Origin: Paenibacillus flagellatus
Lineage (GTDB): Bacteria > Bacillota > Bacilli > Paenibacillales > NBRC-103111
Assembly: GCF_003217775.1 (NCBI RefSeq)
Contig: NZ_QJVJ01000012.1
Span: forward strand, 1-64,000
Length of the DNA: 64,000 nucleotides
Direction of reading: 5' to 3'
Below, piece after piece: positions 1 through 55,326 of the stretch (positions within the stretch are counted from its first letter, which is position 1; each line of letters opens with the position of its first letter). The position numbers were made by a program, and so were the translations under genes. The notes under the pieces were generated by a model. The model was not told where the DNA came from. It worked only from the letters and a program-made list of their open reading frames with translations, and did not search any database.

Positions 1-147
1 GGGGGGAGTTATCCCCATGTGGATATTGGTTTCAAAATTTCGCTGGTCCCACTCCCACTTATTCACAGTTGTTGATCCGCTCCTGGATGATCGCCACCGC
101 ATTCTTATGCGCTTTCGAAATTCAGGTATAAAGCATATTACGATATA

Positions 148-663
148 TTGATTCAAGGCTACGATAGACAGGATGAAATGATAAGGAAAATTATATCTGG
201 TATCAATAAATTTTTCAATCCTGATGATCATGAGGATGATAAGCTCAAAATCTGGACGACACATAAATACGAGCTTCGCACTTATCCCAGGGTAGCTGTT
301 ACAAGTAAATATGCGTATTCGAATCAAATTGAACTGCTTGTTCCAAGGCTGCCTGCCCATTTGAAGGAAATGGAATACGTTCCCGACCATTTTCTCTTCC
401 GCGTATATAAGTCGAAAGAAAAGGCCTTTGTTGAGCTAAGAATTGACCTAAACCTTTATCGAGTTTTAACGTTAGTTCAAATAGGATATCCATCACAGCT
501 AGTACCTGAACAGCATCAATTTAAGCTGCTTCGTTTTATGAACGAGCTTTCCTCGTTAGAATCGACAAGCAGAGCTAATGAGTTTTTGATCAGGGATATG
601 GATAATCGTTCATTATATCGAGTAAAGGTCAATAATGCACAATATGTATCAAAGCGGAGGTAA
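148..663 (+). CDS. Hypothetical protein, first gene of low-GC island operon (TTG at 148; alternative ATG at 178 with AGGA upstream)
   Basis: 171-aa ORF, low G+C, no recognisable motifs. Stop TAA 661-663 overlaps the RBS GGAGGT of the next gene, which starts 5 nt later. Confidence 0.45.
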   Translation: MIQGYDRQDEMIRKIISGINKFFNPDDHEDDKLKIWTTHKYELRTYPRVAVTSKYAYSNQIELLVPRLPAHLKEMEYVPDHFLFRVYKSKEKAFVELRIDLNLYRVLTLVQIGYPSQLVPEQHQFKLLRFMNELSSLESTSRANEFLIRDMDNRSLYRVKVNNAQYVSKRR

Positions 664-667
664 GAGA

Positions 668-2143
668 ATGGCAAACCGATTGAAGGAATATGGGAATCAG
701 GTATTAAATGATTATATCCAATATAGACCTACTTCATCATCTATTAAACCGGTTCATGTTGCTAATGGCTTATTTAGACTTGTATCTGGAGAAAGCTATA
801 CGGTGGATGCTTTAAATGAATGGATAATTCGCTGGAGGCAAGGTAAGGAGGTAAATCCAGCATCAGAAATAAGGAATAAATACAACGATGCTTTCGATGA
901 GAATGGCTTTGACGATGATGAGATAAATATGCTTCGGTTTTACTTAAATATCATTTTTAATGCCGATAATGCTGCATTCCCAAGTGCAAATAATACTGTA
1001 TTGACAATCAGCAGTAAAACCCAAGTTCGAGGGTCTGTTGCGCTAGAAGCTGGCTTACACAGCTTCTTATACCGCTTACTTACTACAGAGGTAAATGGTC
1101 AGTTTTCACCATGTCTAGGACTAATCAAAGAATATTTAGAAAATGAGAACGATGATCTTAGTAGAATCGCAGCGCCTCTGACCAAGTTTGCAAAAAAGAA
1201 AACTCACGATCAAGCTACCAACTCAAATTTACCTTTGCTGAGTGGGGTGGAGTTTAGATTAAGGGCTTCATTTGATAAGCTAGCTCAAAATGAAATGTCT
1301 TCGGGAAACAAGCTCTTGACCTTGGAAAGGATCATTCTGTTTGGATGTTTTGCTATTATAAATCATTTATCTTCAAAGGTGCTAGACTTATCCTCAGAGT
1401 ATTCTATTGATGATAGGGTTCCCATTCTTTTGGATGCAGATGGTGAGCTTGATTCAGTGAAGTATGCAAGCGAAGAGACCTTGGTGGTAGCTAAGCTGCT
1501 TATTGAACAGTTCTTCGAGAAGGGTTTAGAGGAAATTCTATCACCTGAGAAATATGATACATATACCCATGACGAAATGCTTGCACGAATTAATGATTTG
1601 CGTTTAGAGGAAAGCACGAGAAGAACCTCTAACCGTGAGGAGGAGGAGGAAAAGCGGAAAAGCTACCGAGCACTGTACCTAGGTTACTTTGAGCAACTCC
1701 GAGACCCCTTTCAAGCTTTTATTAAGGCTTCACGCTTTAAGCTCTTTGCCGACGAATATGATACTGATCCTTCAAGCTTCATTTCAACCTTTGGGGGAAG
1801 AATTGCTCTGCTCGCGCCGAGGGCACAGGGTGGAAAGCGAAAGAGATATTCTCCTGATCCACTTATTTTGGAAATCTTACTATTGACTATTCTAGAACCG
1901 GGACGTGGCTTGACTTTAAGCCAACTTGGTCATGAGCTATGGGATAGATACGGCATCATTTTTGGTGCTAACCCTGAGACCGATTTTGAAAAGCTAACTA
2001 CCTGGAAGGTGACCCCAAATACGCCTGGTGATCTGGCTGGAGATTTGGCGAAAAATGCGGAGAAAATCGCTGATACATTAATCTCAATGGGATACGGGAA
2101 GCGCTATGCGGATGGTGTAACTGTTATTTCCTTAAGGAGGTAA
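668..2143 (+). CDS. Hypothetical protein, second gene of island operon (491 aa; no Walker motif seen)
   Basis: ATG at 668 preceded by GGAGGT with 7-nt spacing. Stop TAA 2141-2143 lies within AGGAGGTAAAAAATG of the next gene, indicating translational coupling. The ORF track's 635 start is an upstream extension that overlaps ORF1. Confidence 0.55.
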   Translation: MANRLKEYGNQVLNDYIQYRPTSSSIKPVHVANGLFRLVSGESYTVDALNEWIIRWRQGKEVNPASEIRNKYNDAFDENGFDDDEINMLRFYLNIIFNADNAAFPSANNTVLTISSKTQVRGSVALEAGLHSFLYRLLTTEVNGQFSPCLGLIKEYLENENDDLSRIAAPLTKFAKKKTHDQATNSNLPLLSGVEFRLRASFDKLAQNEMSSGNKLLTLERIILFGCFAIINHLSSKVLDLSSEYSIDDRVPILLDADGELDSVKYASEETLVVAKLLIEQFFEKGLEEILSPEKYDTYTHDEMLARINDLRLEESTRRTSNREEEEEKRKSYRALYLGYFEQLRDPFQAFIKASRFKLFADEYDTDPSSFISTFGGRIALLAPRAQGGKRKRYSPDPLILEILLLTILEPGRGLTLSQLGHELWDRYGIIFGANPETDFEKLTTWKVTPNTPGDLAGDLAKNAEKIADTLISMGYGKRYADGVTVISLRR

Positions 2144-2146
2144 AAA

Positions 2147-5100
2147 ATGTCTTCTGAAATTGTACTTTCTGATATACTTGCTGCTATTGTAAGCAAAAGA
2201 GTATTTAATGAGAGCTATGGTATTCTCCTGAAGGATTTACCAAAATACTCGTATAGTAAATTTATAAATATGCTTGAACTTCGAGTTAGAGAACAAGACC
2301 TAGCAATGCCTAAAGTTTTTTTCGTTGGCTTCACAGACGTTGAGCTTGATGAGCTTCGACTTGAGCTGAGTGGTCAGCTTACCTACCTTTCCCTGTACTA
2401 TTCTGTTGAGGAAGCTGAGGATTTTAGAAATGACGGAGACGTTAATAGCACACGAATTGTAATTGTAAAAAGGGCAGTTCCAAAGCTCTCCTCCCTTCGT
2501 TGGTATGAGCAAATAACCGCAGAAGAGATTTATAAAGAGCTATGTGTCAATGCTGAAAAGCAGCTTGGGGGAATTAATGAGTCGTTAAGGAATATGTGGA
2601 AGTCTCTAAATTCAAAGAGAATAATGGATAGAATTTCACTTGAACGACTGATTGACTATTATCAGCACCTTACGTTAAATGATGAAGATATTCCAAGAGA
2701 TTCTGTAGAGCAACTATTTAGATTAGGTTTGTTAATTGATGATAGTGTATTTGTGAAGAGTAATATAGATTCAATCAGACAGAGGCTAATTGAAAACTCT
2801 AGGATAGTTTCACGAATAAGCAATTTAAATAAAGAGGACCGAAAGGCAATTCAATCAAATCCTGAATCAGATAAATTCCATTCTACTCGTTCAAATATTC
2901 TTCGATACTATAGTACAAGAGATGTTTCTGTTCTCGGAAAAATGAAATACAGCGAGGTACAGGAACTTCTTTCTAAGGTGAAGAATGAGAAGACAAACAA
3001 GAAAAAGCCAGTTGACGTTGATGATGATATAGAAGACTCTGATACTGATAGCATCTCGGGAAAATCAAGAAAAAAGTCAGATTCGCCGGAATCAACCGCG
3101 GTTGATTTAATAATTGAGCATGACACTGATAAGGTAAAAGGACTGCTTGATGAGATTGAGCTAAAATATACTGAGTGGGAAAAAGGTAAAGCAAGCAAAG
3201 TCAATGTTGAGAGTGAAAATGAGAGCACTCGTATTGAATTTATTCCTGAGATCCACAACCTTATTCAAACCTTTGTTGGTGAGAATTCCTTTGGAGGCGT
3301 AATAAAAGCCAATGTTAAAAACCCAATAGATGCATTTCGTTCATTGGAGCAATTTCGAGTTAGAGTGTTTGATAGAGAATATATTGATGGAATTAAGGAA
3401 ATTATCGCTCTATTCGAGGATGAATACGCTGAGGTCAAGGGGTTACTTGAAGTCTTTAATGAACTGTTATCTATCAGAAGCAGCTTAGTAAGCGCGGCTC
3501 ACCGTTTAGCGGATTGTCCAATGCTTAAGATTGTTGAATCCGATGAAATTCTAAAAAGCTGTTCTGAATATGTAGACTTGTACGGGAGAGTTCTTAAGCT
3601 TATTAAGCAGCATTATGGTTTATTAAGCTCCTTCAGCCCCAAAGGCTCGAAGCAATTAATAGCTAGCATTAATTCTTTAGACATGATCTACATCATTGGT
3701 GAGGAAAGCGTTCACGCAACTAGCACACCATTATTTCCATTATATCTTTGGAAATACGTCGAGCTTACGGTCAGATTAAGAGAATCCTCTTCCAGTTTGA
3801 GCGAGATAGATAAAGATTTCCTTGTTCGGGCATCAGGGGAAATTCCAAATCCATTACCTACAGTTTTCGTCAGTAGCTACATCTCAAACAAAGGCGACAG
3901 AGTAATTCCAGAGGTAAGCCTGCTTGGTAAGCTGCCGATTTATTCAAGCGAGCAGCAGGTCAACCAAATGCTTGACGGGCTTCAGGTAATCGAAAAATCT
4001 CTTACGAAGCTCATTAAGGTATATCCTCACAGTTCGTTCGGACTGAGAGTTGCCTTTGTGAATCCTCCAAGCGTTAAGCATGTTTTTGACTTGGTTAAAG
4101 GTATGCTTAGAGCAAAGGATATAAGCCTTCAGGGGGCTCATATACATATATTTAAAACTAAAGAGACTCCTGAAAATTGGTCAAGCTTTGATGATGTGGA
4201 TGATACCATATACAGTAAGTTTGCCCTCTCAAATGATCCAAACTTTTCAATTAAGATCGACACAATTGTATTAGGTTTCGATGCACTAGTTGAATTAGTG
4301 AAAAAGAATCACTTCCATACAGTTGTATTGTTTGATCCATGTGGAAAGTCCGTTTCAAATATTAGAAGAAATCCACTACTTAAAATTCATCCTTTGTGCA
4401 TTCCGAAGGTATTTGAGTATGACCCTATCGCGGATAAAGTAGAGATACTACCTGCTTCAGATGGAAATATATTCTCTGATCATCATGATTTAATTGGTCG
4501 TCTAAACGACAAGCCTCAGGGGTGGCATCACACAATTGTTTTAGAGCTAGAGACAAGTAAACAGGAATTTAATAGGCTGCTTGAAACTGTGCCATGGCTA
4601 ATAATAGCTGATGCCAATTTAAAGAATCTTGAATTGAGCGTTATAGGCTCAGAGAAGTGTATCTTTTATCAGTCAAAGTCCTTTCGTGACGTAGGAATTT
4701 ATTCAAATGACTGGGCAAAGCTTACAAAGGGGATGGACTATACAATTCGATCCATTGGAAATTATGATCCAAGGGAAGAGTGTGTGGGTAAGGTATTAAG
4801 AACAATTCAAGGCTTGAATGAAAGGGGCGTTTTGAGTCTTGCATCTTCAAAGGTAGATAGAACCTTTAATATTAATCATACTAAAGGTGCCCTTGGTACG
4901 GCTATCTCTGCAATTTGGTCAAAGCAAAATTCAAAGAATTTTATTATAGTAAGCTTAGATACAGAGCTTGCACAGAGTTGGCTAGATGAACGTGAAGAAG
5001 GGACTTTCTCTGATCTAATTGGAATCACTTTTGATGAGCATCAAGCAGTAATAGATATCATTGAGGTAAAAACATACGATGGTGCTTATCAAGTTGACCA

Positions 5101-6811
5101 AAATGAGATCACAGGAAAGGCTGTTGAACAGGTTAATTCAGTCAGAAGCATCATTCACGAGATTTTTAATGAGAGGGACAAGATTACAAGCACATCAAGA
5201 AGAGAGCTACTGAGGTTTCAGGCTTTTAGGTCTTTTTATCGGCTTCCATTATCAAAGTCTGAAAAAAAGGAGTGGACATACCAATTAAATCGGCTGTTCG
5301 CAGGGGAGATACCTGTCACAATAAACTCATCAATTCATCATGTCAGGTTTAGCGAGCAAGGAACTTCCACGAGCAGGCAGTTGGACTCAGATTATAAAAT
5401 TAACCTGCTGGAGATACGTGATGATTTTATTAATAAGGTTCTAGTAAATTGTTGTGAGGTCAGCTTCGAAAGTAAGTTCGATTCCTTAAGCTTTAAGGGA
5501 AGCAGAAATCCAACTCAACCTTCAACAGATGCTTTCTCAAATTCTAACATTTCATCTGATGAGAGTACGACCCAGCGGGATGTTGAAAGAGTAATCGAGA
5601 AAATCACTGTTGTATCAGATGCAGCAATAGAAAGAAGTTACAAGGCTGATGGAATCAATATTATTGATGATAAAATTGAAACTGCAGAGGCATTTCAAAA
5701 ACTAGCTGGAGATACAACGGCGGAGTTAAAGGACCTAATTATTAAAAATGCGGGTACATTATTTAGAGCAATGCGTGATTATTCAATCGATGTTTCGTCC
5801 GTTGATCCAGAGTTGGCTTTAGTAGCATCAAGATTTATTAGATTCCGAGTAAGACTAAGGGCTGGCGAAACATTGCAAAAGGTTTTGAGGTATCGTACGG
5901 ATATTACTAGAGAAATAGAAGCAGAATCTGAAATTCTTGTTGGGAACGAACGTGGTACTCAATTTGTTTTTGTTGATGTTCCTCGTAAGAGCAGCGATTC
6001 AATTAGGCTTTTAGATTATCTTAATATGCTGCCGCGCGATACGCCGGTTGGAAATCTAAATGTGGTCATTGGACAAGATCCAAGTGGAGAATTTAAGCTG
6101 CTTAACATTGCCCAGGCTCCTCACATGCTAACTGCTGGCTCTACTGGCTCGGGAAAGACAATTTTCCTTTATAGCTTGATTGTGAGCTTAATTTCTCAGT
6201 ATAGCCACGAACAACTTGAACTTGTAATTATTGACCCAAAGCAAACTGATTTTATATTCTTTGACGGTCTGCCGCATCTTCGGAATAAAGAGGTAATACT
6301 GGATGCGGAGAAGGCAGTCGAAATACTTACTGATTTGACTGAGAATGAATTGGAAAGAAGAACTGAACTACTTCGTCAATCGCGTAGTAGAGATTTGTTT
6401 AGCTACAACCAGAAGAATCCTGAAGCACCATTAAAGCCGATCGTTGTAATAATTGATGAATATGCTGACCTTGTTCAGGTAGCAGACCTTGAAGGTCGAA
6501 AAAAGGATTTTGAGAGACAAATGATACGACTGGCTCAACGCTCTAGAAATGTAGGAATACATTTAGTAGTTGCTACCCAGAGACCAAGCGCTGATATTGT
6601 CACTTCGAATCTAAAAACAAACATCCCTTGCAGGATTTCTTTCAGATTACCAGCGCACCAGGATTCAATGACTATTCTGGATTCGCCGGGTGCTGAGGAT
6701 TTGTTAGGTAAAGGCGATATGCTATTCTCACTTAATGGTGATATGACTAGACTTCAGGGACTGTACATCAGTGAAGAGGAATTAGAGAGCTTTTTAGAGA
6801 AGTATATTTAA
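2147..6811 (+). CDS. Large (1,554-aa) cytoplasmic protein with C-terminal FtsK/SpoIIIE-type DNA-translocase ATPase domain; N-terminal ~1,250 aa of unknown function
   Basis: C-terminal motifs: Walker A GSTGSGKT (6137-6160), Walker B VVIIDEYADL (~6443-6472), LVVATQRPSADIVTSNLKTNIPCRISF (6572-), and GAEDLLGKGDMLF, which closely mirrors FtsK LLGxGDMLY. No hydrophobic TM segments at the N-terminus. RBS GGAGG 4 nt upstream. Confidence 0.75.
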   Translation: MSSEIVLSDILAAIVSKRVFNESYGILLKDLPKYSYSKFINMLELRVREQDLAMPKVFFVGFTDVELDELRLELSGQLTYLSLYYSVEEAEDFRNDGDVNSTRIVIVKRAVPKLSSLRWYEQITAEEIYKELCVNAEKQLGGINESLRNMWKSLNSKRIMDRISLERLIDYYQHLTLNDEDIPRDSVEQLFRLGLLIDDSVFVKSNIDSIRQRLIENSRIVSRISNLNKEDRKAIQSNPESDKFHSTRSNILRYYSTRDVSVLGKMKYSEVQELLSKVKNEKTNKKKPVDVDDDIEDSDTDSISGKSRKKSDSPESTAVDLIIEHDTDKVKGLLDEIELKYTEWEKGKASKVNVESENESTRIEFIPEIHNLIQTFVGENSFGGVIKANVKNPIDAFRSLEQFRVRVFDREYIDGIKEIIALFEDEYAEVKGLLEVFNELLSIRSSLVSAAHRLADCPMLKIVESDEILKSCSEYVDLYGRVLKLIKQHYGLLSSFSPKGSKQLIASINSLDMIYIIGEESVHATSTPLFPLYLWKYVELTVRLRESSSSLSEIDKDFLVRASGEIPNPLPTVFVSSYISNKGDRVIPEVSLLGKLPIYSSEQQVNQMLDGLQVIEKSLTKLIKVYPHSSFGLRVAFVNPPSVKHVFDLVKGMLRAKDISLQGAHIHIFKTKETPENWSSFDDVDDTIYSKFALSNDPNFSIKIDTIVLGFDALVELVKKNHFHTVVLFDPCGKSVSNIRRNPLLKIHPLCIPKVFEYDPIADKVEILPASDGNIFSDHHDLIGRLNDKPQGWHHTIVLELETSKQEFNRLLETVPWLIIADANLKNLELSVIGSEKCIFYQSKSFRDVGIYSNDWAKLTKGMDYTIRSIGNYDPREECVGKVLRTIQGLNERGVLSLASSKVDRTFNINHTKGALGTAISAIWSKQNSKNFIIVSLDTELAQSWLDEREEGTFSDLIGITFDEHQAVIDIIEVKTYDGAYQVDQNEITGKAVEQVNSVRSIIHEIFNERDKITSTSRRELLRFQAFRSFYRLPLSKSEKKEWTYQLNRLFAGEIPVTINSSIHHVRFSEQGTSTSRQLDSDYKINLLEIRDDFINKVLVNCCEVSFESKFDSLSFKGSRNPTQPSTDAFSNSNISSDESTTQRDVERVIEKITVVSDAAIERSYKADGINIIDDKIETAEAFQKLAGDTTAELKDLIIKNAGTLFRAMRDYSIDVSSVDPELALVASRFIRFRVRLRAGETLQKVLRYRTDITREIEAESEILVGNERGTQFVFVDVPRKSSDSIRLLDYLNMLPRDTPVGNLNVVIGQDPSGEFKLLNIAQAPHMLTAGSTGSGKTIFLYSLIVSLISQYSHEQLELVIIDPKQTDFIFFDGLPHLRNKEVILDAEKAVEILTDLTENELERRTELLRQSRSRDLFSYNQKNPEAPLKPIVVIIDEYADLVQVADLEGRKKDFERQMIRLAQRSRNVGIHLVVATQRPSADIVTSNLKTNIPCRISFRLPAHQDSMTILDSPGAEDLLGKGDMLFSLNGDMTRLQGLYISEEELESFLEKYI

Positions 6812-6816
6812 TTATA

Positions 6817-6853
6817 GTACACCGTCAGAAACGAACCTGACGGTGTACTTCTT
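6817..6853 (+). terminator. Rho-independent terminator after the FtsK-domain gene
   Basis: Perfect 12-bp stem GTACACCGTCAG / CTGACGGTGTAC with an 8-nt loop, followed by TTCTT. Confidence 0.7.
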
Positions 6854-6880
6854 AGATGGTAGAAAGAGAGTGTGTGTGGT

Positions 6881-7570
6881 GTGTTTGTAAATGAGACAAT
6901 TAAGGGAATCTTTATTAAAGAAAGTAAAAATAGATTTCTATGTACAGTACTGATTAATGGGCTGGTTAATGAGTGCTACGTACCTAGTTCTTCACGCATT
7001 GAGAATTATTTGGAATTGCACAATCGTGAGGTACTATTAACTAAAAATCAAAGTAAAAAAAAACGAACTGAATATTCATTGTTCGCGGTGAAGTATTACA
7101 ATAAGTATATATTAATTAATTTGAATATGATAAATTCAATCGTTCAATTTATGATTCAGGAAAATAAATTAAAAACATTGAGTGGTTTTAGTATCAAACG
7201 AGAACAATTAATTAACAGATACAAAGCCGATTTATTGTTAGAAAATGAAGAAGGAATTCGGATTGTCATTGAAGTCAAAGGGATAATATCTTCTAAACAA
7301 GAGGTCATGTTTCCAAGTATTTATTCTGAAAGAGCAATTTTACAATTATCGAGGATAAAACAATTGCTTCAGGCAGGTGAAAAAGTTTCATATATTATTG
7401 TCTCATTAAGTCCTACAGTTAGAAGAATTATTCTTGATGATACTTACAGGGAATATTATCATAGTTTCAAAGAGTGTCTTGAATTAGGTATGCAAGTTCA
7501 GGCTTTTTCAGTCAATTTTCATGATGGGGTCATTACATTTGGTAAACGAATAAGGATTATTCCTTTATAG
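6881..7570 (+). CDS. sfsA: SfsA-family protein (OB-fold plus PD-(D/E)xK-like nuclease domain; sugar fermentation stimulation protein A homologue)
   Basis: Colinear similarity to E. coli SfsA from memory: RFL...V near the N-terminus, a KKKR basic patch, LSGFS, RIVIEVKGI (SfsA CYIEVKSV) and a C-terminal GxxVxAF segment. GTG at 6881 is preferred (RBS AGAAAGAGAG 10 nt upstream); GTG at 6872 is also possible. Confidence 0.7.
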   Translation: MFVNETIKGIFIKESKNRFLCTVLINGLVNECYVPSSSRIENYLELHNREVLLTKNQSKKKRTEYSLFAVKYYNKYILINLNMINSIVQFMIQENKLKTLSGFSIKREQLINRYKADLLLENEEGIRIVIEVKGIISSKQEVMFPSIYSERAILQLSRIKQLLQAGEKVSYIIVSLSPTVRRIILDDTYREYYHSFKECLELGMQVQAFSVNFHDGVITFGKRIRIIPL

Positions 7571-7580
7571 TGTGTAAAAG

Positions 7581-7611
7581 AAAGAGGCAGAGGCAGGTAA
7601 CCCAGCCTCTT
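7581..7611. terminator. Hairpin between convergent genes (likely terminator for the minus-strand small ORF)
   Basis: AAAGAGGC...GCCTCTTT stem. On the minus-strand RNA it is followed by CUUUUAC. Confidence 0.4.
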
Positions 7612-7821
7612 TCAGGAGGTCCATTCGGATTCATCAATCTCGATATGAATCCATCCAGTTGGGATGATGTGGAGTTTGTTATCAGCGGTCTTCAAACGGT
7701 GAGTCCCAGAGTCACGAACAATAAGTTCAGTTACATTTAAAAGAACTACTTTCCCACCATTTGGAAAAAAATATGTTCTTGAAGATTCCTTAAGTTGTAT
7801 AGGCTTACCGACCTCAGACAT
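7612..7821 (-). CDS. Small hypothetical protein (69 aa), low G+C
   Basis: ATG at 7821 preceded by a GGGGGG RBS at ~7-nt spacing (GTG at 7839 also in frame). No recognisable motif. Confidence 0.35.
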   Translation of the reverse strand: MSEVGKPIQLKESSRTYFFPNGGKVVLLNVTELIVRDSGTHRLKTADNKLHIIPTGWIHIEIDESEWTS

Positions 7822-7910
7822 AATTGTACCCCCCGACACGTCTATATACTACATTATACATCAAAAAGCAATTGCAGTATATATTTCAAAAACGATCAGA
7901 GGTGTAAGGC

Positions 7911-8894
7911 ATGCTGGCATTTTTTAGTTCAAATCATAGACCCCTTTATAAAGAATCAATTTATCGTGCACTGTCCTATCCTAATGGACATGTAATTCAA
8001 CTAAGATATAGGAAGCAATGGTTACATCAAGATGTTGTCAATAAACTTGAGTATTATAAAAAGAATAAAACCGATTGTATCCTTTTCTTTTATGAAAAAA
8101 ACAATCAGAGTTTTCATTCTATTAGAAAGGCGAAGATAATCGATTATAAAATTAGTCCTGTAACAAAGCAATACCATTTCTATATTGAATTTGAGAAATT
8201 TATTGATATGGAAATCGACATATCTACGGCTCAAGGTAAAACACCACTTGATGGCATACACTTTTCAGACTTGGATTTAAAAAACGGAGCAAAGCATGAA
8301 TGGTTTGAGAGAATAGATAATTTGAAAGCGGAGTTTCCAGATCTCGCTTTTTTTAATATTAATGGCTTTTATAATAAAAGTGGAAAAAAGCGTATTAAAA
8401 GCAAGTTTAAAAACTATGAATCAATCTATGAATTGCGAGATAATAAAGATTACAAAATCGAATTGTCGCTTTATAACACATCTTCAAATGATGAGATTTC
8501 TGAGTATACTCGAGATGTAACTGACCCAAACTTAATATTTGTAAACGAACCTTCAAAAATAATAGTTTCTGGTTCTTTGGATGACAGAGAGATAACATTG
8601 AAGACAAATACATTAGAGTCTTCGTCGCTATATTCTTATGTTACGTACAATGCTACTTCTAAGGACGGAAGTGTACAATATTCGGTTCCATTACAGTTTA
8701 AAATAAAACGAAATAGAACTAAGTCTTTCTATTTTGGGATATTATCTGCGAAAGCTGCGAGTTGTGTTGGAGTAGTAAATTACTTCACCAAGTTCAATTA
8801 CATATTGCCTTGCCATCGTTGGATTATTTGGATAGCGATATTTTTGTTTTTTCTTTCAGTAGCTGAGTTATTCCGTGTTTTCAATAAGAAATAA
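7911..8894 (+). CDS. Hypothetical protein with C-terminal transmembrane anchor (327 aa), low G+C
   Basis: RBS GAGGTG 8 nt upstream of the ATG. C-terminal hydrophobic helix WIIWIAIFLFFLSVAELF. No known motif. Confidence 0.5.
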   Translation: MLAFFSSNHRPLYKESIYRALSYPNGHVIQLRYRKQWLHQDVVNKLEYYKKNKTDCILFFYEKNNQSFHSIRKAKIIDYKISPVTKQYHFYIEFEKFIDMEIDISTAQGKTPLDGIHFSDLDLKNGAKHEWFERIDNLKAEFPDLAFFNINGFYNKSGKKRIKSKFKNYESIYELRDNKDYKIELSLYNTSSNDEISEYTRDVTDPNLIFVNEPSKIIVSGSLDDREITLKTNTLESSSLYSYVTYNATSKDGSVQYSVPLQFKIKRNRTKSFYFGILSAKAASCVGVVNYFTKFNYILPCHRWIIWIAIFLFFLSVAELFRVFNKK

Positions 8895-9231
8895 CCCGAA
8901 AATAAGTTTATTGATACGGTAACAATCATGTAACAAAATGTCGCGAATTTAGCGATAATTGGAAATAATACAAAACGCCGAAAACCCAGTCAGGACAGCA
9001 TGCTACGGTTCGCCGCATTGACGTCCTTACATCAAATTAGGGTATCTTCGCCTAGAGGCATTATTTTAACTCTATTAAATAGGCGAAAAACTAGCCTGGC
9101 ATTATATGAGTCATTGCCTTAAAAACTGCCGCAAAAATTCGTAATAAAGTATGATAAATTAAGAGAATAGTGCGTCACAGAACATTAAGAGCCTTGATTT
9201 TACGTGATTTTGAGGCACTGAGGGGCTTTTT

Positions 9232-9456
9232 CTAACCCTCCACCAAATCCACAATCTCCCGAATATCGCTGATGCCTAGAGCATCGGCGATTTTTTCAAT
9301 ATGCGAGAAGTTGATGTTCGCGCGCTTGCCGTTGGCTAACTCGCTTAAGGCGGCATGGCGGACGTCGGACAAGCGGGAGAGCTCCCTTAAGGAAATACCT
9401 CGTTGTTTCAACAACTCCGGAATTTTCACAACCACTTTCTTGGACATTTGGATCAC
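9232..9456 (-). CDS. XRE-family (Cro/cI-type) helix-turn-helix transcriptional regulator
   Basis: 74-aa protein QRGISLRELSRLSDVRHAALSELANGKR, a typical HTH_XRE. Sits at the island boundary, divergent from the next ORF. Confidence 0.8.
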   Translation of the reverse strand: MIQMSKKVVVKIPELLKQRGISLRELSRLSDVRHAALSELANGKRANINFSHIEKIADALGISDIREIVDLVEG

Positions 9457-9567
9457 CGCTCCACTTTGGAATTGACTATACGCGATAACGTACCATATAA
9501 TTGAAGAAGGGCTGGTACGTATATGCGTAACATCATTTATTCAGTATTCCGCGATTGGAGGAGGCCT

Positions 9568-9855
9568 ATGCATGAATGGATCAATGAAACGATCGTAGAG
9601 AGGTTCCGCCTCTTATCCGGCAACGCCGAACAACTAGAAGAGGTTAAGGTACTACGAGCCCGTACTAGGGAAGCCGAACAACAACTCCTCGCAAACATGC
9701 CGCATGAAAGAGAGCATCTAGACAACCTGCTCAACCTGCTCACAGAACTCGACACCCTACATAACAAGCACTTCTATGCCAAAGGACTACAGGACGGCAT
9801 CCAACTTCTTATCTTTTTCCTGTTTGACGACGGCATTTTGGAGTCCAATAAATAA
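9568..9855 (+). CDS. Hypothetical small protein (95 aa) divergent from the XRE regulator
   Basis: ATG at 9568 preceded by GGAGGAGG. The ORF track's 9523 start is an upstream extension. No known motif. Confidence 0.4.
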   Translation: MHEWINETIVERFRLLSGNAEQLEEVKVLRARTREAEQQLLANMPHEREHLDNLLNLLTELDTLHNKHFYAKGLQDGIQLLIFFLFDDGILESNK

Positions 9856-9892
9856 TGGGTACCTACCATTCCCCGAAAAGAAAGGAGCTTGC

Positions 9893-10180
9893 ATGATCCT
9901 TACCCAAGACATCCCTCTCTGGTGGGTCATCGCCATCGGCGTCCCGGTCATCCTCCTCAACCTGTACTTGGAATTCCGCCACCGCAAAAAGGAGGAGGCG
10001 AAAGCATCGGAAGACGGCGAAAAAGCCAGCGGGTCACGGAGCACAAACGCCCCGATCCAAGACTACGGCTACTGGCGCACGATCACGAAGCCTCGCAAGC
10101 CGGATGCCCCCGCGCCAGATAACCGTTCGGCGATCCCGAACGAGGAAGGAGATCCCCCCAGCAAAACCAGCCGGTCCTGA
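9893..10180 (+). CDS. Small membrane protein (single TM helix, Pro/charged-rich tail)
   Basis: ATG at 9893 with RBS AAAGGAG 6 nt upstream. Sequence MILTQDIPLWWVIAIGVPVILLNLYLEF is a TM helix. Confidence 0.4.
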   Translation: MILTQDIPLWWVIAIGVPVILLNLYLEFRHRKKEEAKASEDGEKASGSRSTNAPIQDYGYWRTITKPRKPDAPAPDNRSAIPNEEGDPPSKTSRS

Positions 10181-10335
10181 CCCGAACTCTTACGTAGCCC
10201 CGCTCAGCCATAGCCGTCCCAATCGGGCGGCTTTCCATTTTCCCCAAACATTTTCCACGTCGTAATACTTTCGCCATGTTCGCGGCGCCTCGGATGAGCG
10301 AATATAGGAGGCAGAGATCAACGAAGCGGAGGCTT

Positions 10336-11763
10336 ATGAGGAACATGGAACGTCAAGCAATCGAGCATGGACACAATCATTACGAGATGGAGCTGCCGCA
10401 CGGCCGGCTGCATCTGTACGCGAGCCCGGACGTGATGCGATCGTTCGAGGCGAAGGTATACGAGATGGCGGACAACAATTTGCGCATTCCGCGCAATGTG
10501 TATATGAGCTATACCCCGGACGCGCATGTGGGTGTCGGGACGTGCATCGGGACGACGGCGGTGTGGCGGATGAAGGACGGCTTCGTGTCGCCGTCGATCG
10601 TCGGGGTGGACATCGGGTGCGGGATGCGGGTGCATCTGACGCCGCTGCATCGTCGTGACATACAGGACCGGGCGGTGCGCCGGGCGCTGATCGAGGCGAT
10701 CGAGCGGTACGTGCCGACGAACGAGCGGACGAATACGCACTATGCGGATATCGACATCATGGACGTCGTGCGGCACGGCTTGAAGGGATTGCCGGAGCGG
10801 TACGTCCCGGATGAACGGTGGCTGACGCACGTGGAGGAGTCGACGTTCAAGTTCGACCATGCGTACCTGGAGCATCTGCCGCCGAAGATTCGCAAGTATG
10901 CTCACGGGCAGCTCGGGACGCTGGGAGGCGGGAATCATTTCATCGAGCTGCAGTATGTGGAGCTGGCGGAGGAGCAGCGGGAGCTGGCGGAACGGTGGGG
11001 CTTGTTCGACGGTCAGGTCGTTGTCATGATCCATTCCGGCTCCCGGGCGTGGGGCGCGATGCTCGGTCAGGCGTACACGAAGGAGCTGCGCGAGGCGATG
11101 TACAGCTGGGGCGTGGAGAACCCGGACCGCAACCTGATCTACGCCCCGATCGCGAGCCGGGAAGGGCAGTCGTACTTGAACCTGATGTACTCGGCGCTGA
11201 ACTTCGCGGTGAGCAACCGCCATATGATCGCCTACGGGGTGCGGGAAGCGTTCCGCGACGTGTTCGGGGCGGAGATGGAGCTGCCGGTGCTCTACGACTT
11301 GATGCACAATTATGCGCTCAAGGAGTTCCACCGCAACGAGCCGATGCTCGTCCATCGCAAAGGCGCGACGCGGGCGCTGCCGCCGGGACACTTCCTGAAC
11401 GCGGCGGCGTACAAGGAGACGGGGCACCCGGCCTTGATCCCCGGCTCGATGGGAACATCGTCGTATATCATGGTCGGTCGGCCGGAGGGGATCAAAAACT
11501 TTTACTCGATCTGCCATGGTGCCGGCCGGGCTCGCTCCCGCAAGGCGACGAAGGAGCTCGTGACGGTCGATCAGTTCGAACGGTCGCTGCGGGTCGGGAC
11601 GGACGACGAGGTTCTGGTCAACCACCGGTCGCTCCAGTCGATTCTCGACGAATGCCCGCAAGCGTACAAGGACGTCGACCAAATCATCGACAGCGTCGTC
11701 GGCGCGTCGCTTGCCGATGTGGTGGCGACATGCAAGCCGATGGCCGCCATCAAGGGCGTATAA
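10336..11763 (+). CDS. rtcB: RNA-splicing ligase RtcB (3'-phosphate/5'-OH RNA ligase)
   Basis: GVDIGCGMR, the GGGNHFIELQ signature, HSGSRAWG and ICHGAGR. Start ATG at 10336 (GGAGG upstream); the 10276 start in the ORF track is probably an extension. Confidence 0.9.
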   Translation: MRNMERQAIEHGHNHYEMELPHGRLHLYASPDVMRSFEAKVYEMADNNLRIPRNVYMSYTPDAHVGVGTCIGTTAVWRMKDGFVSPSIVGVDIGCGMRVHLTPLHRRDIQDRAVRRALIEAIERYVPTNERTNTHYADIDIMDVVRHGLKGLPERYVPDERWLTHVEESTFKFDHAYLEHLPPKIRKYAHGQLGTLGGGNHFIELQYVELAEEQRELAERWGLFDGQVVVMIHSGSRAWGAMLGQAYTKELREAMYSWGVENPDRNLIYAPIASREGQSYLNLMYSALNFAVSNRHMIAYGVREAFRDVFGAEMELPVLYDLMHNYALKEFHRNEPMLVHRKGATRALPPGHFLNAAAYKETGHPALIPGSMGTSSYIMVGRPEGIKNFYSICHGAGRARSRKATKELVTVDQFERSLRVGTDDEVLVNHRSLQSILDECPQAYKDVDQIIDSVVGASLADVVATCKPMAAIKGV

Positions 11764-11957
11764 ACCGAGGCGCCGGGTTTCCCGGCCGCCAAACCTTTCA
11801 CCACTAACGGTGGTTGACGTCCGAAGGACGTTTGATCATACATGGGCTTGATGTACGGGTGGCGTACCCGGGCAGGGACGTCTTCACCGTCCCGCAGTGC
11901 TCGCGCACGCTGTGTGCGGGTATGCTGTACGGCCTCTCCGGCTCTTGCTCCGCCAAT

Positions 11958-11972
11958 GGGGTTCGATTCCCC
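11958..11972 (+). other. tRNA-like T-arm motif (GGGG-TTCGATT-CCCC) in the noncoding gap downstream of rtcB
   Basis: Exact T-loop consensus GGTTCGATTCC flanked by a 4-bp stem. No matching acceptor stem, D-arm or anticodon arm was found, so it is not a complete tRNA or tmRNA. Confidence 0.3.
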
Positions 11973-12307
11973 GCATCGTCTTGACACGATGTCTCTGGTA
12001 GAGAACTCGACTTTCCATCGAGGGATACCTATTAAGCAAACCGACCTTCGCCTGGAATCCTCGGTGGCACCTTACGCACGCTGCGCCGGGGCTCTGCAAT
12101 CCGCGGATACCGAACCGGGCAGGCGGGCCCGACCGTCGAACGGACGGGGAGGGAGGCAGGCTGCAAGCGGGCCGATCCTCCGTTCCCGGCAAGTCCGGCG
12201 AGACGCCTCGGCCTCCCCGGTTCTCAAGCGGGATTCCGCTGCCGACGCAGGAGGATTCCAAGGTTCGGGGTCACCCAACCAACGACTATACAAGGGGGTT
12301 CCATCCC

Positions 12308-13423
12308 ATGTTGAAAACGATAACGATCCAAACGGACGAGCGCGGCTTGCTGTTCCGCCGCGGAAGCTACGAAAGGATGCTGGCGCCGGGCACGTACCGG
12401 TTCTTGTCGTGGTCCGGCTATACGGTCGAGACGCTCTCGATCGTGAAGCCGTTCGAGGTGCCGGGCAAGGAGCTGGCGCTGTTCGCGCACGACGAGAGGC
12501 TGCTGCGCGAGCTGGACGTGATCCACGTGGCCGACCACGAGGTGGCGCTGCACTACGAGGACGGCAAGTTCGCGTCGCTGCTGAAGGCGGGGAGCCATGC
12601 GTTCTGGAACGTGCTGAAAAAGCACGAATTCGTCCGCATCGACATCCGCGAGCCCGAGCTGCCGGCGAGCTTGAACCCGGCGGTGCTGCCGAAGCTGATG
12701 CTGTACTACCAGACGTTCGAGGTGGCGAACCACGAGTCGGGCGTCCTGTTCTACAACCACGTCATGCAGCGGGAGCTGGCGCCGGGCAAGTACTATTTCT
12801 GGAAAGGACCGGTCTCGGTAACGGTGAAGACAGTGGACCTGCGTCAGCAGCAGATCGACATGACCGGCCAGGAGATGATGACGGAGGACAAGGTGACGCT
12901 GCGGCTGAACTTCGTCTGCCAATACCAGATCGCGAACCCGCTGCGGGCGCTGTCGTTCAAGTCGTTCGAGGAGCAGCTGTACATCCAGCTGCAGCTCCAC
13001 CTGCGGGAATACGTCGGCACGATGAAGCTCGACGACCTGCTCCGCATGAAGCAGGAGATCGCGACGTTCGTCCTGTCCCGCTTGAACGCGAAGAGCGAGG
13101 AGTACGGCGTCCGGTTCTTGTCGGCTGGCGTGAAGGACATCATCCTGCCGGGGGACATCAAGGACATCTTGAACACGGTGCTGCTGGCGGAGAAGAAGGC
13201 GCAGGCGAACACGATCACCCGGCGCGAGGAGACGGCGTCGACCCGCAGCCTGTTGAACACGGCGAAGCTGATGGACGAGAACGAGACGCTGTTCCGGCTG
13301 AAGGAGCTGGAATTTCTCGAGAAAATATGCGAGAAAATCGGCACGATCTCGCTCACGGGCGGCGGCAACCTGCTGGAGCAGCTGAACTCGCTGCTCGGCG
13401 AGCGTAACGCGGGGAAGGCGTAG
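12308..13423 (+). CDS. SPFH/band-7 (stomatin/flotillin-like) domain protein
   Basis: SPFH-type pattern QIDMTGQEMMTEDKVTLRLNFVCQYQIANPLRA. Alternating EKKAQA coiled-coil C-terminus. Confidence 0.65.
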   Translation: MLKTITIQTDERGLLFRRGSYERMLAPGTYRFLSWSGYTVETLSIVKPFEVPGKELALFAHDERLLRELDVIHVADHEVALHYEDGKFASLLKAGSHAFWNVLKKHEFVRIDIREPELPASLNPAVLPKLMLYYQTFEVANHESGVLFYNHVMQRELAPGKYYFWKGPVSVTVKTVDLRQQQIDMTGQEMMTEDKVTLRLNFVCQYQIANPLRALSFKSFEEQLYIQLQLHLREYVGTMKLDDLLRMKQEIATFVLSRLNAKSEEYGVRFLSAGVKDIILPGDIKDILNTVLLAEKKAQANTITRREETASTRSLLNTAKLMDENETLFRLKELEFLEKICEKIGTISLTGGGNLLEQLNSLLGERNAGKA

Positions 13424-13502: not shown

Positions 13503-14355
13503 GGTAAGGGTGTGTATGTTGATCGTGATCGATCGCGCCCGTAGTGCGAAGAACGATCGAATGCGGTGTGACGATGGAGGGATAGCGGATAACGAGGCTG
13601 CTAGATCGTTGGCGGGATTTTGGGCAATCCTTATATTTGCTTCGGAACAAGGGAGGACCGGAAGTCCTATCCGAAGAAGTAGGTGTCACGGCGACGGAGA
13701 AGGCGGGCACTGGCGGGGATGATCCGGATGTTCCGGAGAAAACACTCAGCGCATTTTTTATAAATCGAGCTGGGCAGCCTCGACGGGCAAGATCATTGAA
13801 CGGCGGTAAATGATGCGCTAGCGTTTCGTTTAGTAGATAGCCCCCAATCGAAGGTATTCGCTGTGTTGCTCCGAGCACCATTGAAGATTGCAGCCGCAAG
13901 CAGGCCTGCGTAAAATACGGAAGGCCAGGGTGGGGCGGGGCGGTTGCCTTGTCGGCACATCTGTCTGCACCGCCCTTGACCGGGGATGTCCGCGAATTGG
14001 ACTGTATCGGTTAGTGAGAAGAGACAACGTGTTATGGGAGGTCCCTTCATTTTTCGGAGTGAGTATTTGAAGGAGGAGCAGCCGATTTGTCGCTATTCCG
14101 GGATCCGAACGTATTGACACTTACGCTGCGTCAACCCTTAAAGTAAGTACATAAAGAAAGGGATTCGCCGCTATACAACATAGATTCCGAGCACCTAGTA
14201 CCCATGATGATTATGAGAAATGGCAAATAAGACCGTTCAGAATGGCGGCATAATGAACGGGGGCACGACTCCAACGCCGAAGCGATAAAAATGAATATAT
14301 GTCCGCAATTGAAGGAAACGCACAACGATATTCGACATAAAGGGGGAAGAATCCG

Positions 14356-15420
14356 ATGCATATTGAGCTTCAAAACACCTTGCCTGCCCTAAAACGTTTT
14401 TTTACGGAACGAATTCCTCCTAATGAACGTTTATCCCGATACTTGGAGTGGGCAGAAAGCGAGCACGGTACGATTACTTTGCTGAAGAAGGTGAAAGGAC
14501 GGAAGCCGTCGTTCCAAGACGCCGATATCCTTTCCGCCGTCCGAAGCGACGGTATCGATATTTTGGAAGCGCAGCAGCAGTACGGTCTGTTTAATCCGTC
14601 GAGGAACCTGGAAGCGACGAAATGGAGCTTTGACCAATCGGAACGGCAGCAGCTGGATACCCGGGTTTTGACGAGGCTGGAAACGTTGGCGAGGGCGCTC
14701 CCGTCCTCTCTGCTGCCGGAACGGCTCGTCGTCGTCGTCCTGCCGGCGGATTGCGCGAACGGAACGCTGATGCTGAACGGTTCCGGGATCAGCTGTTACG
14801 GTCGCGCGCCGGGTTATTTGCTGCTGCGCATCTGGCCTTCTACGGGCAATCTGAGTCGCCTCGATTCCGTTCTCGCGAGGAGCTTCATCCACGGAATTCG
14901 GCGAGGCGTACAGCGGATCGAATCCGCCATCCCGCTCGGCGAAGCCTTTGTTATGGAAGGATTGGCGGCCGCTTTCGTGCAAAGTATGGTTCCCGAAGCA
15001 GCCCATCCGGAGCTGGCAAGCTTCCTTCCGCCGGCGGACTGGGAGGAGCACCTCTCGACTATTGCAAGATACTACGGCGAAGCAAGCTACGACGACGTAT
15101 CGGTCAATATATACGGGACGCCGATCAAGGCCGGCAGCATGCGGCCTCCGAAGGTGGTTCCATTGACGGAAGAGGAGCTGGAGGCGAGTTGCACACGCCT
15201 TGCGCCGCAAGCGTTCCGTCAGGAGGCCAACGTCGTCGCCGCCCATCTTTACGGAGATCCGCTCATCACCGCGCAAGGGCTCCCGTCCTTCGGAATCCCG
15301 CATCTCGGAGGCTTCGAGGCGGGATACCGCATCGTCAGACGATTTTTGCAAAAGACACGCAGCAGCTTGTCGTCGGCGTTGTCCGTACCGTGGGAAGACA
15401 TGGTCCAGGCGGAAAGGTAG
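14356..15420 (+). CDS. Hypothetical protein (possibly DUF2268-like predicted metallopeptidase; family assignment uncertain)
   Basis: 354-aa ORF in high-G+C codon style. No motif I can assign confidently. Confidence 0.45.
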   Translation: MHIELQNTLPALKRFFTERIPPNERLSRYLEWAESEHGTITLLKKVKGRKPSFQDADILSAVRSDGIDILEAQQQYGLFNPSRNLEATKWSFDQSERQQLDTRVLTRLETLARALPSSLLPERLVVVVLPADCANGTLMLNGSGISCYGRAPGYLLLRIWPSTGNLSRLDSVLARSFIHGIRRGVQRIESAIPLGEAFVMEGLAAAFVQSMVPEAAHPELASFLPPADWEEHLSTIARYYGEASYDDVSVNIYGTPIKAGSMRPPKVVPLTEEELEASCTRLAPQAFRQEANVVAAHLYGDPLITAQGLPSFGIPHLGGFEAGYRIVRRFLQKTRSSLSSALSVPWEDMVQAER

Positions 15421-15819
15421 GGAGAACCGAACATCCAAACGACTCGGTGACAACGTTCCTCTGTTGAACCCTAAACCCGGAATGGCAGAGTACGACGCTT
15501 TAGGGCTGTAATGGATCGGCTCTTGCTGGAACAGAACGCTTTTTTTGCTGCTTCGGGCGGGTATACCGCCGGCTCGCCACCCTCCGAAGCCTTCACGTCC
15601 CGATGGTCCACGAAAACGCTCGGTTCACCTTGTCCCAATGCCGTACCAATACCCAAGAGGATGTTGGACATGGAATCGGCATGCTCGCCATTCGACCATC
15701 CGTGTGTAACGATTCCGGTCCATGTGACTTATAGTCGGCTGCAATCGTTCGGATAACCGGGTATTATGGCTTATGGAGCAGCCTATTGCATGCAATTGGG
15801 GAGAAGGGGGATTAGCGCC

Positions 15820-17205: not shown

Positions 17206-17213
17206 TCCGGTAG

Positions 17214-17246
17214 AGATGGTGCCCTATGGGCATCATCTTCTTTTTG
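17214..17246 (+). terminator. Rho-independent terminator for the 15820..17205 gene
   Basis: GATGGTGCCC-TAT-GGGCATCATC stem, followed by TTCTTTTTGTG. Confidence 0.7.
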
Positions 17247-17254
17247 TGTGACAT

Positions 17255-17291
17255 GGAAAACGGGGGCTGGCGATAACGCCATGCCCCCGTT
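17255..17291 (-). terminator. Rho-independent terminator for the minus-strand SLH gene
   Basis: AACGGGGGC / GCCCCCGTT 9-bp stem. On the minus-strand RNA it is followed by UUUUCC. Confidence 0.6.
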
Positions 17292-17304
17292 CGTAGGATG
17301 CGGA

Positions 17305-52406: not shown

Positions 52407-52673
52407 ATGATAGTCCGAACGGTGACGGTGCAAAACGAGCAAGGGTTCCACGTCCGCCCGGCGCAGCTGTTCGTCGAGAAGGCGGGGGCGTTCGAAGCCC
52501 GCATCCGGGTGCGCGGCGGCGCCGGCGAGGCGGACGGCAAAAGCATGCTGGAGCTGATGACGCTCGGGCTGGAAAAGGGATCGGCGCTGACGATCGAAGC
52601 GGACGGCCCGGACGAGGCCGAGGCGGTACGCACGCTGGCCGAGCTTGTCGACGGCCGGTTCGGTGAAGCGTGA
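52407..52673 (+). CDS. HPr-family phosphocarrier protein
   Basis: 88 aa. GFHVRPA contains the active-site His. Confidence 0.8.
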   Translation: MIVRTVTVQNEQGFHVRPAQLFVEKAGAFEARIRVRGGAGEADGKSMLELMTLGLEKGSALTIEADGPDEAEAVRTLAELVDGRFGEA

Positions 52674-54454: not shown

Positions 54455-54498
54455 GCGACGAGGGAAGCGGCTGCGGCCGCTTCCCTCGTTTGCCTGCT

Positions 54499-55167: not shown

Positions 55168-55326
55168 GTCGGGGCCTCCGTTGGATGGATTTTCATCCCA
55201 TTTTCCTGAATTTTACATCGTTCGATTGGCGGTTGCAACCTGCCGGCCGTTCACAAAGTGCTCATTAGGAGTCGGACCGCCGCTTCGCTATAATAAACGT
55301 ATCATAACGTAAACGGGGTAGGGCGT

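Follow-up and report, generated by a model that had tools for sequence, protein, structure and literature searches.

An AT-rich, SspFGH/DndFGH-like gene cassette of Paenibacillus flagellatus, probably acquired horizontally and cut by an IS1380-family element

We analyzed 64,000 nucleotides (nt) of Paenibacillus flagellatus DNA (contig NZ_QJVJ01000012.1, positions 1 to 64,000; this whole stretch is hereafter the window), the left end of which is markedly AT-rich. Positions 127–8943 very probably constitute acquired, low-G+C DNA of Bacillota type carrying a defence-type gene cassette that has been cut by an insertion sequence (IS) and is most likely inactive, with the right-hand limit of the foreign DNA falling between 8943 and 10250. 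The window copy holds the distal five-sixths of a six-gene cassette (DruA, F, G, H, SfsA and a gene for a 327-amino-acid (aa) protein). Its gene F is interrupted after codon 339 by an IS1380-family element: homology to the F gene of every relative starts exactly at 127 and the IS ends at 126, and therefore it is the IS that interrupts F. This cut at 126/127 had been missed in an earlier, first-pass annotation of the same DNA.

The compositional step is sharp. The G+C content is 37.4% in 1–9230, 51.5% in 9231–10200 and 61.8% in 10201–64000, and in 1-kb tiles the values of the AT-rich block (0.33–0.42) have zero overlap with those of the remainder (0.50–0.73). The G+C at third codon positions (GC3) is 0.25–0.37 in the five open reading frames (ORFs) of the block, against about 0.8 (~0.7–0.9) in correctly framed genes to the right. 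Similarly, for the first two 4-kb tiles, the tetranucleotide profile is negatively correlated with that of the remaining sequence (r = -0.34 and -0.45), as against r = 0.88–0.98 for all tiles beyond 12 kb. All three measures show the step and exclude a uniform G+C; the block thus departs from its host in both composition and codon usage. The first-pass annotation had placed the step correctly, along with the shift in codon usage and the gradient over an XRE regulator and small ORFs (9232–10180), but its figures of 30–35% against 65–70% G+C overstated the contrast, the step being ~24 points rather than ~35. Within the window, the right-hand limit is the sole true boundary of the AT-rich DNA, the left edge at 126/127 being the IS junction; the term "embedded" in the first-pass annotation thus goes beyond what the window shows.

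Copies of the block were located in other genomes through homologues of H (P. mucilaginosus, P. doosanensis, Brevibacillus, Paenibacillus sp. G2S3 and a metagenome); further copies, in P. curdlanolyticus, Neobacillus mesonae, Lutispora saccharofermentans and a Nitrospiraceae metagenome-assembled genome (MAG), came from scanning one genome per species. This yielded thirteen distinct loci (L001–L007, L009–L012, L016 and L018), with L002 and L008 being the same P. doosanensis contig and L016 and L017 taken as the same sequence. Window positions 127–8943 form one block collinear with L017 2236–11032 (85.6% over 8830 columns in blastn). The 8.8-kb block is present in four other Paenibacillus (P. 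mucilaginosus, P. doosanensis, P. curdlanolyticus and another species) at 83–90% nucleotide identity, with different flanking genes each time; over 6.7 kb, the pairwise identity to P. mucilaginosus, P. doosanensis, P. curdlanolyticus and L017 is 87–89%. Diverged copies in Brevibacillus, Neobacillus, Lutispora and the Nitrospiraceae MAG again have other flanks. Near-identical copies hence recur in unrelated contexts and taxa. With flanks of up to 53–61% G+C, as in P. mucilaginosus and P. curdlanolyticus, the cassette still has ~38%, and in hosts of lower G+C it has 32–35%.

The chromosomal locus itself tells the same story. Judged by RtcB, the RNA ligase encoded to the right of the block, the two closest relatives available were P. 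hemerocallicola and P. sedimenti (88% and 86% identical, respectively), and neither has the block beside RtcB; the genes upstream of RtcB differ between the two, and no empty site can be defined. Moreover, H is 90% identical to its P. mucilaginosus counterpart, whereas the conserved RtcB is only 78% identical. The recurrence of the block in unrelated contexts, its absence from this locus in both relatives and the greater similarity of H than of RtcB together argue for horizontal acquisition, as the first-pass annotation had proposed, and against ancestral presence in all relatives. Its word "recent", however, holds only in a relative sense, with a synonymous divergence (dS) of 0.4–0.6 to the nearest sampled copies. 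The substitutions private to the window lineage are balanced (AT to GC 52, GC to AT 47), with no drift toward the G+C of the host, and the same balance is seen in other high-G+C hosts, which is compatible both with recent arrival and with selection for AT-richness. The AT-rich sequence would thus be at its own equilibrium rather than being pulled toward 62% G+C, a pattern that fits recent arrival.

The IS junction was defined by comparison with other copies of the element. A 35-nt probe (window 55–89) recovered seven metagenome contigs (L019–L025) with IS copies at least 99% identical, and all seven diverge into unrelated AT-rich DNA exactly after ...CGAAATTCAGG, which corresponds to window position 126. 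The complete element, present in one of these (L023), measures 1586 bp, ends in perfect 15-bp inverted repeats (CCTGAATTTCGAAAG), is flanked by a 5-bp target duplication (TTTAT) and encodes a single protein, a 433-aa DDE transposase (PF13701, 8e-54; NF033539 'IS1380 family transposase', 275.6 bits against a cut-off of 180). The full copy hence combines the transposase, inverted repeats and short target duplication that define the IS1380 family, and it resembles members such as ISEcp1 in its one DDE transposase, 15-bp inverted repeats starting with CC, 5-bp target duplication and insertion into AT-rich sites. Unlike the complete element, the window holds only the last 126 bp, and there is no sign that the element mobilized neighbouring DNA. 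By alignment to the full copy, the transposase gene is expected upstream of the window, with its stop codon 50 nt before position 1.

The IS copies in L019–L025 are 99–100% identical, have flanks of 38–59% G+C and often lie at contig ends; since such near-identical copies occur in at least seven contigs of varied flank composition, often at contig ends, the element looks active and recently spread. The sites into which it has inserted in these contigs begin with short AT-rich sequences, for instance, ATAAT, TTAAA and TTTAT. A 44-codon ORF (17–148, plus strand), preceded by a Shine–Dalgarno-like sequence (GGGGGGAG), spans the junction of the IS and F, and a minus-strand frame is open from ~100 past the left edge of the window (100–1). 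As they lie in IS terminal sequence, both are probably fortuitous.

Table 1. Features of the AT-rich block, its left-hand insertion sequence and its right-hand boundary (window coordinates)
Coordinates	Strand	Feature	Remarks
1-126	+	IS1380-family right-hand terminus	IS coordinates 1461-1586 of the 1586-bp element; 100% identical to L023 5814-5939
112-126	+	15-bp terminal inverted repeat CTTTCGAAATTCAGG	End of IS1380-family element
127-663 (listed ORF 148-663)	+	Gene F 3' remnant (codons 340-517), SspF/DndF-like P-loop protein	Homology to every relative's F starts exactly at 127
668-2143 (ORF 635/668-2143)	+	Gene G, 491 aa, distant SspG relative, intact	PADLOC SspG E ~1e-6
2147-6811	+	Gene H, 1554 aa, intact	Methyltransferase-like fold, PD-(D/E)xK nuclease and FtsK motor
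6872-7570	+	SfsA-like nuclease (OB and PD-(D/E)xK domains), 229-232 aa	Pfam SfsA 4.5e-14, SfsA_N 8.3e-11
7911-8894	+	327-aa protein, one C-terminal transmembrane helix (~297-325, by hydropathy)	Recurrent cassette neighbour
8895-8943	.	End of collinear acquired block	Homology to L016-L018 stops at 8943
9232-9456 (probable ATG 9447)	-	XRE/Cro-type helix-turn-helix regulator	Pfam HTH_26 3.6e-12, HTH_3 3.3e-10; 51% G+C
9472-9501	+	Promoter-like site	11/12 consensus positions matched
9523/9568-9855	+	DUF6809-like ORF	Pfam DUF6809 1.5e-4, under cut-off
9893-10180	+	95-aa membrane protein	Hydropathy
10212-10232	+	Terminator-like hairpin	Ends 19 bp before chromosomal homology
from 10251	+	Start of chromosomal backbone; RtcB RNA ligase 10345-11763, then Band-7/SPFH gene 12308-13423	Pfam RtcB 1e-120; annotated RtcB 472 aa

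The domain content of the block (Table 1) points to a module of the SspFGH/DndFGH kind. Against the DndF model of PADLOC, which has 548 positions, what remains of F matches only 469–546. The Walker A motif (GNPGDGKT, residues 54–61 in intact copies) lies 5' of the break and hence outside the remnant in the window. The intact F proteins of relatives, 514–521 aa in length, match SspF (1e-20, 72 bits) and DndF (5.5e-13, 46 bits) in PADLOC. The protein encoded by G is 92% identical to its P. mucilaginosus and P. doosanensis counterparts, has a ratio of non-synonymous to synonymous divergence (dN/dS) of 0.07–0.09, and matches the SspG model with 26 bits over its C-terminal part. The family to which it belongs is a small one, numbering 213 clusters (E <= 1e-3) in a set of 1.84 billion representatives; the matches of its members to SspG are weak (35–58 bits), which suggests a sister group rather than SspG proper. 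By analogy, G is the probable DNA-binding subunit.

H combines an N-terminal alpha/beta and helical region, a methyltransferase-like Rossmann fold (~610–860), a PD-(D/E)xK nuclease domain (~880–1100, with D956, E973 and K975 encoded at window 5012–5071), a variable linker and an FtsK alpha+beta motor (1194–1550) with the Walker A motif GSTGSGKT. Three sets of residues are invariant in fifteen H homologues spanning 33–100% identity, namely NPP[S/T/D] at 639–642 (window 4061–4072) in the Rossmann fold, (P/S)D956...E973-V-K975 in the nuclease and GSTGSGKT in the motor. The C-terminus is recovered by Pfam FtsK_SpoIIIE (1.6e-37), aligns with the alpha and beta domains of Escherichia coli FtsK (PDB, 2.4e-71) and accounts for the match to PADLOC SspH, which has 236 bits and is limited to residues 1198–1550. 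In profile searches of H against PDB sequences, only motors of the FtsK, EssC and TraB types were matched, and a Foldseek search of a 1110-residue model of H against the PDB gave only marginal methyltransferase matches. The NPP[S/T/D] motif resembles motif IV (NPPY) of N6-adenine methyltransferases, minus its aromatic residue, and no clear S-adenosylmethionine-binding GxG motif was seen in this domain.

The SfsA-like protein scores 78 bits against the NCBIfam sfsA model, under the cut-off of 126. Its gene is a mosaic: it is close to the L017 allele (non-synonymous divergence, dN, 0.11) and far from those of P. mucilaginosus and P. doosanensis (L001 and L002; dN 0.31–0.35, with dS saturated), while the genes upstream of it are ~90% identical to those of the latter two species, with nucleotide homology to both breaking at ~7250–7340. 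This pattern is indicative of recombination in the 3'-terminal part of the cassette. For the 327-aa protein, profile searches of Pfam, PADLOC and NCBIfam gave zero family matches; a 79% identical homologue occupies the same place after SfsA in L016–L018, and more distantly related proteins are encoded next to the cassette in L005, L007 and L011. None of DruB, DruC, DruD or any other candidate system in PADLOC was matched when tried as the identity of F, G, H, SfsA or the 327-aa protein. Among the genes of the block, the first-pass annotation had recognized an FtsK motor and SfsA and left the rest as of unknown function; those two calls stand, the others can now be assigned as SspFGH/DndFGH-like, and the 327-aa protein is still without a match. 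Its guess of defence or accessory cargo gains support from these PADLOC matches.

The intact cassette is constant in its organization. The co-directional order DruA-F-G-H is kept in 13/13 distinct loci, across H proteins ranging from 93% down to 33% identity, and an SfsA-like gene follows H in all twelve that reach past H (L012 ends inside H). All thirteen loci retain a full-length F with its Walker A motif, accompanied in intact copies by G of ~490 aa and H of ~1540 aa. The DruA of these copies is a GNAT-like protein with the PF14236/DUF4338 domain (PADLOC DruA1, 476 bits). The closest copy (L016–L018, Paenibacillus sp.) is a complete operon followed by the gene for the 327-aa membrane protein. 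A DruE-like helicase gene lies just upstream of DruA in two loci only, P. mucilaginosus L001 (1–4298) and N. mesonae L010 (13–5148), the latter scoring 1951 bits against the PADLOC type I model DruE1. PADLOC gave no matches to DruB, DruC or DruD in the window or in the relatives. From the helicase next to DruA in these two loci, the cassette would seem able to team up with the DruBCD part of Druantia type I or to take its place. Other defence-type genes surround the cassette in several relatives, including the DruE helicase, NERD, a McrBC-like AAA_5 gene with DUF2357/PDDEXK_7, Mrr and ArdA.

Comparisons with characterized systems place the cassette near, and outside, each of three families. 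SspFGH of Vibrio anguillarum FF-93 is a phosphorothioate-dependent restriction module that damages unmodified DNA and is toxic in the absence of the modification (PMC8092258). It is the best PADLOC match of F, G and H, and both modules have a core of three genes that agree in order and approximately in size (~520 aa with Walker A, ~490 aa, and ~1550 aa with an FtsK/SpoIIIE-like C-terminus). Of these features, the window retains the large subunit with such a C-terminus, whereas a Walker A-bearing SspF-type protein is reduced to F codons 340–517. The matches to SspFGH are weak (F and G) or confined to the C-terminal 350 residues of H, with no full-length similarity of G or H. Unlike SspFGH, no copy of the cassette has sspBCD in the flanks retrieved (~5–10 kb in the relatives), and DruA and SfsA are added, along with the 327-aa membrane protein in the closest copy.

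DndFGH has been proposed to act as a standalone 'HerA/FtsK capture' counter-invader system and is reported to be commonly decoupled from phosphorothioate modification; its DndH, with a mean length of about 1700 aa, unites a methyltransferase proposed to be inactive with a restriction nuclease and a motor of the HerA/FtsK class (Rakesh, Aravind and Krishnan 2024, PMC10853773). The order of domains in H, a methyltransferase-like domain, a PD-(D/E)xK nuclease and a motor of the HerA/FtsK class, is that of DndH; the cassette motor is of the cellular FtsK type and includes the alpha domain. As in DndFGH/DptFGH, modification genes are not linked to the cassette in the flanks retrieved. Some DndF proteins are fused to a DUF4338 GNAT domain (PMC10853773), which in the cassette is encoded by a separate upstream gene. 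In contrast to DndFGH, F, G and H have no Dnd-associated match in NCBIfam, the PADLOC match to DndF is the 46-bit one given above, H at 1554 aa is shorter than the mean DndH, and an SfsA nuclease and a membrane protein are added. Druantia type I, finally, shares with intact cassettes the full-length DruA at their start and, in two loci, the DruE helicase upstream; it differs in its DruB, DruC and DruD, all missing here, and in its DruE, which most loci lack. The window itself has neither DruA nor DruE and hence cannot be assigned to Druantia.

These comparisons suggest that the cassette is a variant, not described so far, of the standalone DndFGH/SspFGH kind, and a full-text literature search returned no description of a DruA-SspFGH-like-SfsA cassette. 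We tentatively propose, at somewhat less than even confidence, that DruA-F-G-H-SfsA, with or without DruE and the 327-aa protein, may be a modification-independent anti-phage or anti-plasmid system that has not been described before and that would link Druantia type I to Ssp/Dnd, in which a possible role of the NPP[S/T/D] domain of H is the reading or blocking of adenine methylation. On this proposal, P. flagellatus would have a naturally occurring IS knock-out of the P-loop subunit. If the cassette works as SspFGH and DndFGH do, F (NTP-binding, as a sensor or a kinase-like subunit), G (DNA-binding) and H might assemble into a complex that tracks along DNA by its FtsK motor, with the PD-(D/E)xK domain nicking or cleaving foreign DNA. 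SfsA could serve as a second nuclease, and the GNAT-like DruA and the membrane protein may have accessory or back-up roles. The gene set is rare, with about 200 G clusters among the 1.84 billion representatives. All copies examined have the SspFGH/DndFGH-like trio together with DruA and not with phosphorothioate-modification genes; this supports the published standalone proposal and suggests that there is a functional tie with Druantia type I, the accessory proteins of which are uncharacterized. The family is a reasonable candidate for a modification-independent, FtsK-motor restriction system linked to Druantia type I.

Several observations weigh against an acquired defence-type cassette that is no longer active. 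The matches of F, G and H to the SspFGH/DndFGH models are weak or partial; NCBIfam gave nothing for F and G beyond weak generic P-loop matches for F, and for H only models of FtsK-, type VII secretion- and HerA-type ATPases. The nearest copies are separated from the window by the dS given above, and the actual donor would thus be unsampled. The window has no integrase, tRNA gene or flanking repeats. Finally, the genes for G, H, SfsA and the 327-aa protein are all full length and show no sign of relaxed selection: the dN/dS of the downstream genes is 0.07–0.16, and their window-private non-synonymous/synonymous changes (G 7/22, H 11/45, SfsA 4/10) do not exceed those of lineages whose cassettes are intact. 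With the downstream genes intact in this way, either the disruption of F would be very recent or the remainder would still be useful.

The absence of mobility genes bears on how large the acquired unit is. Like generic genomic and defence islands, the block has deviant G+C, codon usage and tetranucleotides, a patchy distribution, defence-type cargo and IS activity; unlike them, it has no visible integrase, tRNA target or direct repeats in the window. No tRNA gene is present in the 64 kb, no integrase was found among the window ORFs examined, and searches around the block for att-like direct or inverted repeats gave only short chance matches; the left boundary lies outside the window. The block could be part of a larger mobile island (an integrative and conjugative element, a prophage remnant or an integrase-borne defence island) whose mobility genes and true left boundary lie beyond the IS. 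This would be compatible with the acquisition of a cassette, and we consider it a serious, if somewhat doubtful, possibility: the cassettes of relatives sit among other defence-type genes, and a simple insertion of the IS would place a minimum of 3.1 kb of further AT-rich DNA (F codons 1–339 and DruA) beyond it, whereas neither the 64 kb, with its lack of integrase, tRNA and att-like repeats, nor those flanks of relatives that were read contain an integrase. As an island, the block is ordinary: foreign low-G+C DNA with cargo of the defence type in a Paenibacillus chromosome of high G+C.

The state of the copy is a separate question. With the IS inside F after codon 339, the Walker A half of F and DruA would have been either displaced beyond the IS or deleted. 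That the truncated cassette is still functional, with G, H, SfsA and the 327-aa protein dispensing with F, or relying on an F made in two parts or encoded elsewhere, and the IS perhaps giving an outward promoter, would accord with the four full-length downstream ORFs, their dN/dS and their unraised private non-synonymous/synonymous changes. We nonetheless regard it as unlikely. In SspFGH, each of sspF, sspG and sspH is essential, and deletion of sspF abolishes defence (PMC8092258); among 1798 taxa with DndFGH, DndF is present in all, as against 96% for DndG and 93% for DndH (PMC10853773); and all thirteen relative loci keep their F intact. The purifying selection measured between copies, moreover, mostly predates the IS insertion. 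Since F is split from its P-loop and all three subunits are needed in SspFGH, the P. flagellatus copy is probably inactive, and it illustrates how potentially self-toxic modules may be silenced after transfer.

A further reading takes the cassette as the restriction half of a phosphorothioate (Dnd/Ssp) system with its modification genes elsewhere in the genome. In its favor, F, G and H match only Ssp/Dnd restriction models in PADLOC, and the toxicity of SspFGH without phosphorothioate modification would call for such genes. It is nevertheless improbable: no dnd or ssp modification gene was found in the flanks of ~5–10 kb retrieved for the thirteen relative loci, DndFGH-type modules are reported to be commonly decoupled from modification (PMC10853773), and the constant companions of the trio are instead DruA and SfsA.

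Transfer by the IS itself appears still less probable than this. ISEcp1 with blaCTX-M exemplifies a geometry in which the IS lies upstream of the mobilized genes and in the same direction, and the IS1380-family element could have brought the block by such one-ended transposition, the unit running from the left end of the IS to a surrogate right end near 8943. The IS is indeed upstream of the block with its transposase gene co-directional with the cassette, and the collinear block ends abruptly at 8943. Against this, there is no sequence like the right-hand inverted repeat near 8943 or anywhere in 8700–10300 (the best match is 9/15, under the typical best of shuffled sequence), the position of the IS within a cassette gene has the look of a secondary insertion, and the other IS copies adjoin unrelated DNA. 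Two other readings are far-fetched: that the stretch is ancestral and kept AT-rich by selection, with which private substitutions without drift to high G+C in any host would accord, and that it is an assembly chimera of a low-G+C contaminant with a P. flagellatus contig, with which a window beginning inside a repeated element, a typical place of misassembly, would accord. Against them, the block is missing from the RtcB locus of the two nearest relatives and has unrelated contexts in other genera, the transition from AT-rich to GC-rich DNA at 8.9–10.3 kb is not at a repeat, and public P. flagellatus entries 100% identical to H, to RtcB and to the 327-aa protein are placed on a contig of one and the same length.

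An acquired cassette secondarily cut by the IS thus being the favored account, its right-hand end can be bracketed by homology. Beyond 8943, an interval of ~1.3 kb (8944–10250) with intermediate G+C, comprising an XRE/DUF6809 module, is specific to P. flagellatus among the compared loci; tblastn found no homologues of its XRE, DUF6809-like and small membrane genes in any cassette or chromosomal relative locus. The region 9523–10232 forms a small operon divergent from the XRE regulator. The promoter-like and terminator-like sites listed in Table 1 come from a scan of 1–10400 that overall showed no enrichment over shuffled sequence. Homology to the chromosome resumes with P. hemerocallicola L013, the blastn alignment of which starts at 10251 (82%), and with P. 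sedimenti L015, which covers RtcB and Band-7 (10355–13392, 73%). On these alignments, the limit of the foreign DNA is placed between 8943 and 10250. The 54 kb to the right contain ordinary chromosomal genes, coding for RtcB, Band-7, HtpG, SLH-domain wall proteins, ABC transporters, a UvrA-like ATPase, a phosphotransferase system EIIC component, creatininase, a bacterial nitric oxide synthase, a dehydrogenase and a polysaccharide deacetylase.

Some minor observations concern this backbone. Downstream of the syntenic RtcB and Band-7 genes, P. sedimenti L015 has a cluster (13517–18102) that the window lacks and in which a second RtcB paralogue (58% identical) is accompanied by RlaP, an AAA ATPase and an HD-domain protein. 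A second, much smaller compositional anomaly is present at 38.5–42 kb (52–57% G+C), within which a gene for a 175-aa protein of the DinB/mycothiol-S-transferase family (40810–41337, plus strand) has 41% G+C and a GC3 of 0.41. The G+C of the window peaks at 0.75 in 53001–54000 (region 52645–55209), where the longest ORF has GC1 > GC2 > GC3 (G+C at first, second and third codon positions, respectively), suggesting that the true gene lies in another frame or on the other strand.

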